Positions 1,423 to 17,168 of a stretch of 38,310 bases of DNA are shown piece by piece. Under the pieces are notes generated by a model, which had not been told where the DNA came from, ran no database searches, and saw nothing but the letters and a program-made list of their open reading frames with translations. The first letter of the stretch is position 1. Each line of letters starts with the position of its first letter. Source of the stretch: a phage. Made by a program: the position numbers and the translations under genes. Where the stretch lies: sequence record PX946180.1; one strand, given 5' to 3'.

Positions 1423-1460
1423 AGACTCAAGGTCATCGTCAGGTGGCCTTTATGATTAAC
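1423..1460 (+). promoter_or_regulatory. R1.1-like RNase III processing element (R18.5 position)
   Basis: Motif AGACTCAAGGTCAT..GTGGCCTTTATGATTA, one of four copies (also 6468, 9884, 17126); GTGGCCTTTATGATT core matches my recollection of the T7 R1.1 site. Confidence 0.5.
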
Positions 1461-1509
1461 ACTACGCGAGGTGCGATCTCGTGAAATCTGAGAAACAAGG
1501 AGGGCAACT

Positions 1510-1947
1510 ATGCTCAAACTTTTACGACAGGCCGTCCCTTGGCTGGTGGCAGGACTCCTGTTCTGCTCAGGTTACTGGGTGGCAGACAATAAGTGGGAGG
1601 CAAAGGTAAACGATGAATACATCACGAAACTTAAGGCACGAGAGAATCAACGGGCTGCTGTCCAAGGTGAAATCGACAAAGTGTCAGCAGAGTGGCAAGA
1701 CAAGATGTCCGCGCTGGAAGGCTCTACTGATAGGATTATTGCTGACCTTCAGTCTGACAATAAGCGGCTGCGCATCCGAGTCAACACCTCAGGTCTCACC
1801 GAGTCGGATATCAGTCGATGCTTCCCTAATGGTAGAGTCGAACTACACCCAGAAACTTCTAAAAGTCTTATCCGAATAACTCAGGAGGCAGACCTTAAGG
1901 AGAAGGCTCTTCAGGACACAATAAGGAGGCTTCAAGGTGTTAAGTGA
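1510..1947 (+). CDS. i-spanin Rz (T7 gp18.5-like)
   Basis: 145 aa; N-terminal TM segment followed by a charged coiled-coil region; position after small terminase. Confidence 0.8.
   Translation: MLKLLRQAVPWLVAGLLFCSGYWVADNKWEAKVNDEYITKLKARENQRAAVQGEIDKVSAEWQDKMSALEGSTDRIIADLQSDNKRLRIRVNTSGLTESDISRCFPNGRVELHPETSKSLIRITQEADLKEKALQDTIRRLQGVK
1613..1879 (+). CDS. o-spanin Rz1 embedded in the +1 frame of Rz (true start uncertain, probably internal)
   Basis: Embedded ORF with lipobox-like LTISGC followed by Pro/Ser-rich tail, typical of Rz1 lipoproteins; the first ~35 residues of the tracked ORF are probably not translated. Confidence 0.55.
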   Translation: MNTSRNLRHERINGLLSKVKSTKCQQSGKTRCPRWKALLIGLLLTFSLTISGCASESTPQVSPSRISVDASLMVESNYTQKLLKVLSE

Positions 1948-2374
1948 TTACTACAAAGTGGACCAGGCGAGTCCATCCGGTCTGGTCTCCGTTAGGACTG
2001 GAAAGCCTGTGGGGACGTTAAGTCGGATGGGATATTGGATAGTACAGACACGAAGTCTAGGCAGTAAGCGGGCACATCGCGTGATATGGGAACTAACCAA
2101 TGGTCCTATACCACATGGTATGCAAATAGACCACATCGACAGGAATCCCAGCAATAATACCTTAAGTAACTTACGGCTCGTTACTGCCGCTGAGAACACT
2201 TGGAATACTGGTAGCCATTATGACTCTAAGACAGGAGTGAAGTGCGTTACCCGTCACCAGAATGGTTATAGGATTCAGGTTAAACGCGGTAATGTCTATA
2301 TGCGAACAACACGTCCTACTTTAGAGGAGGCTATCTCTGTCCGGGACCTAATGCTGGAGGGACTCTATGTCTAA
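1937..2374 (+). CDS. HNH homing endonuclease (HNH_3 motif plus AP2-like DNA-binding region)
   Basis: 145 aa; motif [37 protein letters not shown]; overlaps Rz stop and large terminase start; T7 has no gene here. Confidence 0.85.
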
Positions 2375-4133
2375 GAAAACACCTGTTGAAAGACAGGCAG
2401 AAATGACCCAAAGGATGAGGGACGATTTCGTGTTCTTCATCTTCGTTCTCTGGAAAGCTCTTAGCCTTCCGGTTCCAACCCGCTGCCAGATAGATATGTG
2501 TAAGAAGCTGGCTGCTGGGGATAATCGCCGCTTCATCCTTCAGGCGTTCCGTGGTATTGGCAAGTCGTTTCTGACCTGTGGTTTCGTGGTCTGGAAACTA
2601 TGGAACAACCCAGACTTGAAGTTCATGATTGTGTCGGCCTCAAAGGAACGAGCCGATGCGAACTCCATCTTCATCAAGAGAATCATCGACCTCATGCCTC
2701 AGCTTCAGGAACTCAAACCTAAGCAGGGACAGCGAGATGCGGTTATCAGCTTCGACGTTGGGCCAGCCAAGCCAGACCACTCACCTTCTGTTAAGTCCGT
2801 TGGTATCACTGGTCAGTTGACTGGTAGTCGTGCTGACATACTGATTGCAGATGACGTGGAGGTTCCTAATAACTCTGCGACTCAGGCTGCACGAGACCGT
2901 CTGTCAGAGCTTGTGAAAGAGTTCGACGCTATCCTGAAGCCGGGAGGTACAATCATCTATCTGGGTACGCCTCAGAACGAGATGACCCTGTATCGTGAGC
3001 TGGAGGGTCGCGGCTATACGACGACTATCTGGCCTGCACGTTACCCTCGAGATAAGAAGGACTGGCAGTCTTACGGCGACCGTCTGGCTCCTATGCTTCA
3101 GGCAGAGCTGGAAGAGGACCCTGAATCCTTCTACTGGCGTCCGACCGATGAGGTACGATTCGATGATACGGACCTGAAGGAACGTGAGCTGTCCTATGGT
3201 AAGGCTGGCTTCGCGCTACAGTTCATGCTTAACCCGAACCTGAGTGATGCTGAGAAGTACCCTCTGAAGCTCCGTGACCTTATCGTAGCCGACTTGGACC
3301 CAGCGTCCAGCCCAATGGTCTACCAATGGTTGCCAAACCCTCAGAACAAGCGTGAGGACGTTCCTAACGTTGGACTCATGGGTGACTCATACCACACGTA
3401 TCAGACTGTAGGTTCTGCCTTCAGTTCGTACACCCAGAAGATTCTGGTCATTGACCCTAGTGGTCGTGGTAAGGATGAAACTGGTTATGCGGTACTGTAT
3501 CAGCTAAACGGCTACATCTTCGCTATGGAAGTTGGTGGTATGCGTGGTGGTTATGAAGACTCTACGCTGGAAGCCTTGGCTAAGATTGGTCGTAAGTGGA
3601 AGGTCAACGAATACGTCATTGAGGGTAACTTCGGTGATGGTATGTACCTTGAGCTATTCAAGCCTGTAGCGGCACGTATCCATCCTGCTGCTGTAACTGA
3701 AGTGAAGAGTAAGGGTCAGAAAGAACTCCGCATCTGTGACGTTCTGGAGCCTATCATGGGGTCTCACCGACTTATCGTTAACGCTTCTGCTATCGTCCAA
3801 GACTACCAGACAGCCTCTGATAAGGACGGCGTTCGTAACCCTATCTACTCTCTCTTCTACCAGATGACACGTATCTCTCGTGAACGTGGAGCCTTGGCAC
3901 ATGATGACCGACTTGATGCTCTGGCTATAGGTGTACAGTTCTTCGTTGAGTCTATGGCTAAGGATGCCAACAAAGGCGAACGTGAAGTCACTGAGGAGTG
4001 GCTGGAGGAACAGATGGAGAACCCACGGAAAGGCTTCGAGTCCATCCACACTGAGTTCTGGGACAATGGTGTCCGGGTAACTCACGATACGGGCGATGAG
4101 CTTGGGCTAGGGTCATACGTTACGTTCCACTAG
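2367..4133 (+). CDS. terminase large subunit (T7 gp19-like)
   Basis: 588 aa, collinear with recalled T7 gp19 (586 aa); Walker A-like GIGKS and nuclease region present. Confidence 0.95.
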
Positions 4134-4227
4134 CTGAATGAATAACTATAGGTGAAAGCTGCATGAATACGCAGTTAGTAACCTATAGTTACTACCAGTC
4201 TAACCTACTGTTTTACAAGGAGTTTGG

Positions 4228-4250
4228 ACTTAACTATCACTATAGGGAAG
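4228..4250 (+). promoter_or_regulatory. phage RNAP promoter (phiOR-like), +1 G at 4245
   Basis: TTAACTATCACTATAGGGAAG matches the window consensus; sits between terminase and the genome-end region as T7 phiOR does. Confidence 0.7.
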
Positions 4251-15152: not shown

Positions 15153-15202
15153 GGACCATGAGTCCTGTCCCTTTGTTCGCATTTGTGATTAAGGAGTGAC
15201 CA

Positions 15203-16903
15203 ATGTCATACGATGACCAAGACGACGAGAGTGTCTTTCTGTATCACACCCAGTGTCCAGACTGTGGGTCCTCGGATGCCAATGGTGTTTACTCAGATGG
15301 ACACATGTACTGCTTCGCCTGTGACCCTTCAGTCGCATGGAAGAAAGGAGACATGGAGTTGACCGAGGGATACACACCCTCAGGAGGTAAAAAGCAAGTG
15401 AGCAATCTGTTAACGTTCAGTGAGAACGCTGGACGATATGTCCCACTACCAGCCCGTAGTCTAAGCATGGAGATATGCAAGAAGTACAGCTACTGGGTGG
15501 GTAACATGGGCGGCAAGATGGTTCAGGTCGCTGATTATTACGACAGGTCCGGGACCAAGGTAGGGCAGAAAGTCCGAGACGCTGAGAAGAACTTCACGGC
15601 TATCGGTAGCGTCAAGTCTGACATGCTGTTCGGCTCTCAGCTATGGAACGGCGGCAAGAAGATAGTCATCACTGAGGGTGAGATAGATGCTCTGTCTGTG
15701 GCTCAGGTTCAGGATGGTAAGTATCCGGTTGTCTCTCTCCCGTTAGGCGCTAAGTCTGCGAAGAAAGCTATGTCTGCGAACCTTGAGTATCTCGACCAGT
15801 TCGAAGAGATAATCTTGATGTTCGATATGGATGAACCGGGTCGTCAGGCCATTGAGGATGCAGCTCCAGTCCTACCAGCAGGTCGGGTTAAGGTTGCGTT
15901 CATCAACGGATATAAAGACGCAAACGCTGCACTTCAGGCCAAGGACTTCAAGGCAATCACCGATGCTATCTGGAACGCTAAACCTTTCGTCCCGGCTGGT
16001 GTGGTATCAGCAGCAAGTCTGAAGGACCGCACACGAGAGGCAATGCTCAAGGCTGAGACTGAGGGTCTCATGTTCTCGTCATGCACAACACTCAACGCGA
16101 TGACACTAGGTGCGCGAGCTGGTGAGCTTATCATGGTGACTTCTGGGTCAGGCATGGGTAAGTCTACATTCGTCCGTCAGCTCCTCTTAGAGTGGGGCAG
16201 AAGTGGTAAGCGTGTGGGTATGGCTATGCTTGAAGAGGCTGTAGAGGAAACAGTTCAGGACCTTATGGGTCTGGACAACAACGTCCGGCTACGCCAGAGC
16301 AAGGAACTGAAGCAAGCCATCTTAGAGGATGGACGGTTCGACGAATGGTATGACAAGCTGTTCGGAGACGATAAGTTCCACCTGTACGATTCATTCGCAG
16401 AGTCAGAGGAAGACACCTTGTTCGCTAAGTTATCCTACATGGTGGATGGTCTTGACTGTGACGTCATACTGCTGGACCACATCTCAATCGTTGTGTCTGG
16501 CATGGAAGATAACTCAGATGAGCGTAAGACCATTGACCGCATCATGACCCGTCTCAAGAAGTTTGCTAAGACGAAGGGTGTGGTTGTCGTGGTCATATGC
16601 CACCTGAAGAACCCAGAGAAAGGTAAATCGCATGAAGAAGGACGACCTGTTTCAATCACTGACCTACGTGGTTCTGGTGCTCTACGCCAACTGTCTGATA
16701 CTATCATCGCACTTGAACGTAACCAGCAAGGTGATACTCCTAACGTTGTTCAGCTTCGTTTACTCAAGTGTCGCTTTACAGGTGATACAGGAGTGGCTGG
16801 ACACCTTGAGTACAACAAGACGACCGGGTGGCTTGAACCGATTAGCTTCACTGGCAGCAGTGGAGAAGAGGATGGCGTCTCGTGGGAAAACAACGACTTC
16901 TAA
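15203..16903 (+). CDS. primase-helicase (T7 gp4-like)
   Basis: 566 aa, same length as T7 gp4A; zinc ribbon [12 protein letters not shown], primase region, Walker A GSGMGKST and [35 protein letters not shown] identical to recalled T7. Confidence 0.97.
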
Positions 16904-16956
16904 CTGGGAGTCATTCGACGAGTGGCAAGAACTCAACGATTCAGACAGGAGAAATA

Positions 16957-17121
16957 ATGTTAAGAAAACTTAAAGCTAGCTACCATCGGTTCATGTACAA
17001 ATGGTGGAGCGATGAAGCAACCTGCCTGTCCAACATTCTGGGAGACCAAAGGTTCGACTCTAAGGCATGGAAGAAAGCTAACCGTAAGTTTATGTACCAC
17101 TTCTTGCGTACAGACTTCTAG
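16957..17121 (+). CDS. small hypothetical protein (54 aa; tracker ORF 16882..17121 trimmed)
   Basis: AGGAGA RBS 6 nt upstream of ATG 16957; lies between gene 4 and gene 5. Confidence 0.45.
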   Translation: MLRKLKASYHRFMYKWWSDEATCLSNILGDQRFDSKAWKKANRKFMYHFLRTDF

Positions 17122-17125
17122 GTCT

Positions 17126-17168
17126 AGACTCAAGGTCATTCACAGCGAGTGGCCTTTATGATTAGACT
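17126..17168 (+). promoter_or_regulatory. R1.1-like RNase III processing element upstream of DNA polymerase
   Basis: AGACTCAAGGTCATTCACAGCGAGTGGCCTTTATGATTAGAC. Confidence 0.5.

Follow-up and report, generated by a model that had tools for sequence, protein, structure and literature searches.

Do the similar elements that recur between genes of the phage sequence PX946180.1 serve as RNase III processing signals of the kind known from phage T7, and is the 11-mer GACTCAAGGTC that is scattered over the same DNA a part of them? We address both questions for the whole 38,310-nucleotide (nt) stretch, hereafter the window. The window belongs to a K1F-like phage (Kayfunavirus) of the T7 group, since its first 12 kb are ~90% identical to many Kayfunavirus phages by megablast and a comparison over its whole length showed it to be colinear with K1F. 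In this comparison K1F nucleotide 1 falls at window position 4866 and the right end of K1F aligns up to position 4933; a K1F-like genome in circularly permuted form, in which the terminal repeat is present once, is thus what the window represents. All of its genes lie on the plus strand. We conclude, with a probability of roughly 0.9, that five elements of the window are sense-strand hairpins homologous to the RNase III processing signals of T7 and T3 (Table 1), and from this homology we infer that they are cleaved. The 11-mer coincides with these hairpins at some of its positions, and its excess over chance is only partly explained.

Direct reading of the sequence confirmed the four elements that an earlier note on this DNA had described at 1423, 6468, 9884 and 17126, except that the diverged second copy starts at 6466/6467 and not at 6468. 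The total of four was too low, as the window holds at least five canonical copies, the overlooked one being that at 5554-5622. Exact copies of the 3' core of the element, GTGGCCTTYATGATT, lie at 1443, 9909 and 17149, and the copy at 6490 deviates from it by three mismatches; allowing up to three mismatches, seven matches were found in the window against 1.4 expected, a number reached by none of 100 shuffled sequences. The likeness to T7 R1.1, which the earlier note had proposed, was borne out, because the same 15-mer is present in T7 (at 1458 and 5877, with near-copies at 880, 6438, 13882, 18553 and 36846) and because an alignment matches the four elements, column for column, to seven sites of T7, namely R0.3, R0.5, R1, R1.1, R1.3, R4.7 and R18.5. 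The T7 copies of the 15-mer start 10 nt before the positions that we take to be the cuts of R0.5, R1.1, R0.3, R4.7, R6.5 and R18.5, and about 12 nt before the presumed cut of R1.3.

As RNA, each of these four elements is predicted to form a bipartite hairpin with an internal loop, the result on which the earlier note had made its proposal depend. The window elements share a lower stem of 8 base pairs (bp), an internal loop in which 4 nt (ACUC) face 5 nt (UAUGA) and, above it, 9-12 bp of upper stem that starts AAGG/CCUU. The z-scores of the four folds range from -2.9 to -4.9 and their shape is that of T7 R1.1 and R0.5; the T7 segments at the presumed coordinates also fold as expected. The copy at 17126 is identical to T7 R1.1 throughout the internal loop and the 10-bp upper stem, and the copies at 1423 and 9884 match the first 8 pairs of that stem. 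The first upper-stem pair, most commonly A-U, is G-C in the element at 6455 and C-G in that at 5554, the latter as in R1 of T7 and T3.

Table 1. Putative RNase III hairpins, weaker candidates and further 11-mer copies in the window (positions are those of the 38,310-nt stretch)
Feature	Coordinates	Strand	Covariance model	Fold (kcal/mol; z-score)	Predicted cut	Remarks
Putative RNase III processing hairpin, R18.5 equivalent	1412..1470	+	67.0 bits, E 1.4e-13	-23.6; z -3.6	after 1453	CCUUUAU^GAUU
Putative RNase III-type hairpin, R0.3 equivalent	5554..5622	+	27.7 bits, E 5e-4		after 5605	outside training set
Putative RNase III processing hairpin, R0.5 equivalent	6455..6517	+	54.4 bits	-20.5; z -3.4	after 6500	
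Putative RNase III processing hairpin, R1.1 equivalent	9873..9936	+	61.9 bits	-20.2; z -4.9	after 9919	upper stem 12 bp
Putative RNase III processing hairpin, R4.7 equivalent	17115..17176	+	65.9 bits	-22; z -2.9	after 17159	
Candidate R3.8-type hairpin	15144..15180	+		z -2.2		GGGAUGGGAC/GUCCUGUCCC
Candidate R6.5-type hairpin	21171..21258	+		-33.5; z -2.8		stem GAUAGUCAUAUC/GAUAUGACUAU
Candidate R13-type hairpin	29333..29376	+		z -1.3		stem GGCCUAUAG/CUAUAGGCC; fold not significant alone
11-mer copy at promoter	7183..7193	+				+2 to +12 of promoter 7169-7183, before RNA polymerase gene 1
13-nt perfect inverted repeat	4962..5078	.				TGACTCAAGGTCT (4962-4974) / AGACCTTGAGTCA (5066-5078); two 11-mer copies, terminal-repeat region
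11-mer copy antisense in DNA ligase gene	11032..11042	-				sense strand reads GAC CTT GAG TC
11-mer copy antisense in portal gene 8	22749..22759	-				reading frame differs from that of the ligase copy

Pairing in this structure has been maintained through sequence change. In an alignment of 11 sequences, 93.4% of the cells of the named structure are paired and 10 pairs have changed on both sides, which none of 500 shuffles matched. Among 45 matches from 7 genomes, 93.9% are paired, 14 of the 18 pairs have changed on both sides and the covariation is 0.557 compared with 0.207 in shuffles (0 of 500 as high), although this larger alignment was fitted to the covariance model and so favours the structure somewhat. 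Control structures slid along the alignments were paired at just 26-48% (30-47% in the alignment of 11 sequences), against 93-94% for the named structure. Furthermore, because of G-U pairs, the plus-strand RNA folds 8-9 kcal/mol better than its complement in three of the five elements, and in these folding models the asymmetry points to a function in RNA rather than in DNA.

The covariance model was trained on T7 and window sequences, with T3 excluded, and the window was scanned with filters off. The T7 coordinates used for training are presumably those of Dunn & Studier 1983; R0.7 was left out of the model because the segment at its presumed position (1988) did not fold. All significant matches in the window are on the plus strand, and no minus-strand match has an E-value below 7. 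The T3 RefSeq record (NC_003298) annotates ten stem-loops as 'RNase III recognition site', of which the model recovered eight (R0.3, R0.5, R1, R1.1, R1.3, R4.7, R6.5 and R18.5) with no further match in T3 at E<1; the two that it missed, R3.8 and R13, have a different layout. An Rfam scan of the whole window at the gathering threshold (4227 families) gave no match.

The flanking genes, taken together with the layout of T7 and T3, bear out the equivalences R18.5, R0.5, R1.1 and R4.7 that the earlier note had assigned. The first element lies between gene 18 (1145-1408) and gene 18.5 (1510-1947). The R0.5 equivalent sits between the K1F gene 0.35 and 0.36 homologues, ahead of a 0.5-like gene, and has flanks in common with T7 R0.5 (CTGAGTGATAGAC...GATTAYCACTT). 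The R1.1 equivalent adjoins the phage promoter at 9866-9880 and is followed by a gene 1.1-family open reading frame (ORF; 9958-10137; Pfam Phage_1_1), and the R4.7 equivalent is placed between a gene 4.3 homologue (16957-17121) and the DNA polymerase gene 5 (from 17185). The additional element at 5554-5622 ends 15 nt upstream of the ocr gene (gene 0.3; 5637-6143; Pfam PF08684); its fold consists of a lower stem, an internal loop and a long upper stem, and its orthologues in K1F, IME278, ECG4 and ST63 score 27-32 bits with the covariance model. Homology with T7 and T3, covariation and synteny together argue that the five elements are very probably T7-type RNase III processing signals. RNase III sites of the T7 group are of a long-known kind, and the window elements are ordinary examples of it that the earlier note had recognised correctly.

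If they function as their T7 counterparts do, the host RNase III would bind the helix of about two turns formed by each hairpin and would cut a single phosphodiester in the internal loop, on its 3' side (the predicted cut is CCUUUAU^GAUU; positions in Table 1). For the element at 1412-1470 the cut is predicted by analogy with T7 R1.1, whose cut is presumably at T7 coordinate 5887 (Dunn & Studier 1983). Cutting would split polycistronic early and late transcripts into smaller mRNAs, such that the upstream mRNA would retain the hairpin at its 3' end as a shield from 3'-5' exonucleases, and the downstream mRNA would acquire a new 5' end near its ribosome-binding site. In T7, RNase III processes early as well as late precursors, and it cleaves R1.1 RNA at one phosphodiester to give products of 47 nt and 13 nt (PMC4858673). 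Internal loops confine cleavage to one strand and the 3' hairpin that remains protects from 3'-5' exonucleases (PMC1540722); the concept of inhibitory base pairs in the proximal and distal boxes is taken from the same source (PMC1540722).

Several observations weigh against this interpretation. No cleavage data were found for this phage or for K1F, and neither of the two RefSeq records of K1F annotates such sites. Gene 0.7, whose kinase stimulates RNase III in T7, is absent: between ocr and gene 1, tblastn and the ORF list revealed nothing but small ORFs. The element at 5554-5622 scores just 27.7 bits, its fold alone is not significant (z -1.6) and its minus strand folds equally well. Moreover, the T7 coordinates used for training are backed only indirectly, by the T7 folds and by the recovery of annotated T3 sites: the T7 records NC_001604 and V01146 list no RNase III sites, and literature searches for published lists of T7-group R-sites gave nothing usable.

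The hairpins could act solely as RNA structures that stabilise 3' ends, modulate translation or bind RNase III while remaining uncleaved, in keeping with the facts that our analysis demonstrates conserved structure alone, that the phage is without the 0.7 kinase and that some RNase III substrates bind the enzyme without being cut (PMC1540722). However, the copy at 17126 shares its loop and upper stem with T7 R1.1, an efficient substrate (PMC4858673), and the conservation of the ACUC / UAUGA loop far exceeds what pairing needs, so that we consider uncleaved hairpins very unlikely. Even less probable is that the repeats are primarily DNA-level elements, acting in recombination, as module boundaries or as origin components, with an incidental RNA fold. 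Compensatory changes and G-U pairs keep the pairing in the sense-strand RNA only, and every match is on the transcribed strand. It is true that K1F has gene 0.2 and one site that are missing from the window, and that the junction falls within the 3' arm common to two paralogous sites, but any repeated sequence can recombine and no DNA-level function is required for it; the other point in favour is that T3 has both its primary replication origin (5682-5758) and, downstream of it, R1.1 (6003-6053) in the interval between genes 1 and 1.1. Stable hairpins between genes might also suggest intrinsic (rho-independent) transcription terminators, a reading to which we attach next to no credence: the downstream sequence excludes it, as no T run follows any of the elements (AACACTACGCG, ACCACTTACAT, AACCCTAAATA, AGACTAAACGG), and the stems are neither uninterrupted, given their large internal loop, nor G+C-rich. 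RNase III processing remains our preferred reading of the five hairpins.

The 11-mer extends beyond the hairpins. GACTCAAGGTC occurs exactly eight times in the window, at 1424, 4963, 7183, 9885 and 17127 on the plus strand and at 5067, 11032 and 22749 on the minus strand, whereas Markov models of order 1-6 predict 0.04-0.5 exact copies; with up to one mismatch there are 17 matches compared with 1.05 expected. A compositional explanation of the excess was rejected up to Markov order 6. The earlier note had listed the five plus-strand copies correctly and had placed the inverted copy one position off, at 5066. It had further counted a copy at 25049 that proved to start at 25048 and to carry one mismatch (GACTCAAGGTT), and it had overlooked the exact minus-strand copies at 11032 and 22749. 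Its suggestion that the 11-mer is part of the hairpins holds for three of the eight exact copies (1424, 9885 and 17127), which form the 5' strand of the internal loop and the first six nucleotides of the upper stem. Its alternative, a place in the initially transcribed region, applies to the exact copy at 7183 and to the near-copy at 25048, and the other four exact copies belong to neither class.

The copy at 7183 is conserved in K1F, ST63, IME278 and ECG4. An alignment of the leaders that contain it gave -7.3 kcal/mol with no compensatory change, and an R1-type site at this position was rejected (fold z -0.4, no conserved structure across five genomes, no match to the covariance model). It is similar to the sequence where promoter and hairpin join (9866-9897) and also to a degenerate copy (5178-5198), and it is most likely a remnant or a copy of a promoter-plus-hairpin module. 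The promoter at 7169-7183 is a consensus phage promoter directly before the RNA polymerase gene, where T7 and T3 have the E. coli (Escherichia coli) promoter C and R1. It is conserved in K1F, ST63 and ECG4, and in IME278 with one change, and its location implies positive feedback on the transcription of gene 1.

Two other exact copies make up the perfect inverted repeat in the terminal-repeat region; this pair is not exact in K1F, and ST63 keeps the plus-strand copy alone in exact form. Neither the copy at 4963 nor that at 5186 has a significant fold (z -1.6 and -0.9, respectively). The two antisense copies are also found in relatives, that in the ligase gene in ST63 and IME278 and that in gene 8 in K1F, ST63 and ECG4, and their conservation could be explained by protein coding alone. 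The near-copy at 25048, which reads GACTCAAGGTT, falls within the loop or the 3' arm of the hairpin GGGAGACC/GGUUUCCC of a phi10-type 5' leader (25034-25065) and is probably coincidental. This leader hairpin is presumably like that of T7, with a longer loop. A second hairpin follows it, and the two have a total of -20 kcal/mol (z -3.3).

For the five 11-mer copies that lie elsewhere than in the hairpins, we found no function in common. One could regard them as a separate motif, with a role in packaging or junction processing, in priming by primase or in early transcription: there are eight exact copies where 0.5 or fewer are expected, each non-hairpin copy is conserved in at least one relative, two of them pair up as a perfect inverted repeat of 13 nt within the terminal-repeat region and one occupies +2 to +12 of a conserved promoter. 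We nonetheless think a separate motif unlikely, given that the contexts differ (non-coding, promoter-proximal, and antisense to coding sequence in two frames), that both strands are used, that the inverted pair is not kept in K1F and that the coding copies are possibly conserved via their proteins. In addition, the exact 11-mer is absent from T3 and occurs once in T7, inside R0.5. We do not propose that the AGGTC end of the 11-mer acts in primase recognition.

A comparison of the early regions offers a further, tentative view of these repeats. Where K1F has positions 704-1089, the window (5599-5643) lacks gene 0.2 and one RNase III-type hairpin, and the junction lies inside the 3' arm CCTGACTGATAGTCACTAAC that both K1F sites share; the repeated hairpins are thereby shown to be able to act as substrates of recombination. 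In ECG4 and IME278 there are three of these sites, every one of them before an early gene, and the early cassettes of K1F, ECG4 and IME278 (SAM hydrolase, gene 0.2, ocr and others) are each preceded by a copy of the subfamily that ends in CCTGACTGATAGTCACTAAC. It is conceivable, though we would not favour it, that besides their putative processing role the paralogous hairpins are movable junctions for recombination, through which early-gene cassettes are shuffled from one K1F-like phage to another. In that case 11-mer copies outside hairpins, such as the one at the gene 1 promoter, would be scars of exchange.

Eleven phage promoters matching AACTATCACTATAGG were found in the window (4232, 7169, 9866, 11559, 12669, 15134, 21218, 24039, 25019, 29351 and 36627), and at three of them we identified weaker hairpin candidates, which we assign with lower confidence, mainly by layout and position, to the R3.8, R6.5 and R13 types (Table 1). 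The R3.8-type candidate directly follows the weak promoter-like sequence at 15134-15148 and precedes the primase/helicase gene 4 (15203-), the same place as that of the annotated T3 R3.8. It is the only one of the three that shares sequence with T7, its 3' flank CCCTTTGTTCGCATT being identical to that at T7 R3.8. The R6.5-type candidate encloses the phi6.5-like promoter at 21218-21232 and has the promoter-in-loop layout of R6.5 in T3 and T7; it is without the ACTCAAGG...CCTTTATGATTA consensus, so that the likeness is one of architecture only. The R13-type candidate, conserved in K1F, encloses the phi13-like promoter at 29351-29365 ahead of gene 13 (29399-), a layout like that of T3 R13. In the window, neither the covariance model nor the folds revealed a canonical site ahead of any of the genes 1, 0.7 and 1.3. 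For the last of these, an R1.3-type site before the ligase gene was rejected on its fold (z +0.4), and gene 1.2 overlaps the ligase start. A strong hairpin, GGAACAACG...CGUUGUUCC at 24051-24100, begins at the transcription start right after the phi9-type promoter (-20.7 kcal/mol, z -4.2).

Several further features of the window were noted. The RNA polymerase gene (7257-9104) encodes 615 amino acids compared with 893 in K1F, owing to a sharp in-frame deletion of 834 nt at window position 8670 that removes K1F nt 3980-4812, or approximately residues 472-749. Going by T7 RNA polymerase, this segment should include much of the catalytic palm. The genome looks defective, misassembled or edited. The major capsid gene (25140-25827) likewise has a sharp deletion relative to K1F, of 350 nt and frame-shifting, at 25205/25206, which removes K1F nt 21197-21546 (residues ~23-139). 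When both junctions were searched against a collection of 50,697 phage records, the best of the matches listed did not run across either junction in one piece; at the capsid junction, database phages match in two pieces ~430 nt apart. In the terminal-repeat region, the left end of the genome, TCTCACAG..., stands at 4866, where it aligns with K1F nt 1, and is followed by a palindrome, TAGACCTTCGGTCTA (4934-4948), and by ACTACCTACAGT repeats in series (5078-5165), of which the first three are spaced 15 nt apart. These repeats resemble what we take to be the CCTAAAG repeats of T7, and ATCTGTA at ~5056 resembles ATCTGTT, presumably the pause signal of the T7 concatemer junction. Finally, an ORF of 156 amino acids with a T3 gene 1.05 domain (9396-9866; Pfam PF25755, E 9e-25) lies between a gene 1.1-like ORF (9117-9317) and the phi1.1 promoter; no counterpart exists there in K1F, and ST63 and IME278 have an ORF at the same position.

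The practical yield is an annotation for the transcript map of this K1F-like phage, comprising five confident and three possible predicted sites, with cut positions, and eleven promoters. That RNase III processes the transcripts of the T7 group is decades-old knowledge and no new biology is involved; the hairpins that flank early-gene cassettes and the surplus 11-mer copies that stay unexplained amount to no more than minor leads.

Among the closest known relatives of the window elements are those of K1F and other Kayfunavirus genomes, in which near-identical orthologues occupy the same positions (704, 1027, 1763, 5563, 12846 and 36438 in K1F). The R1.1 region is 97.6% identical between the window and K1F; the window has a single site where K1F has one on either side of gene 0.2, and the R18.5 upper stem of the window is shorter (9 bp, GUCA loop) than that of K1F. 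None of the records of K1F and other Kayfunavirus phages that we examined annotates these sites. T7, whose R1.1 RNA is the substrate used as standard for E. coli RNase III, has the same bipartite hairpin, with an AAGGUC...GGCCUU upper stem and the ACUC / UAUGA loop, at the same map positions before genes 0.3, 0.5, 1.1, 5 and 18.5. The terminal loops and lower stems differ between T7 and the window, and in the window a phage promoter stands in place of R1 before gene 1 and the kinase gene is missing. In T3, with ten annotated sites compared with the five canonical and three weaker ones proposed here, R4.7 lies directly before gene 5 and R1.1 abuts promoter phi1.1, as do their equivalents at 17115-17176 and 9873-9936, respectively, and R6.5 and R13 enclose promoters as the window candidates do. 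The sites in E. coli rRNA precursors and in the lambda N leader are mostly fully paired and cut on both strands, whereas the T7 type has an internal loop and receives one cut. These cellular and lambda substrates have in common with the phage hairpins the host enzyme and a helix of about two turns (PMC1540722).

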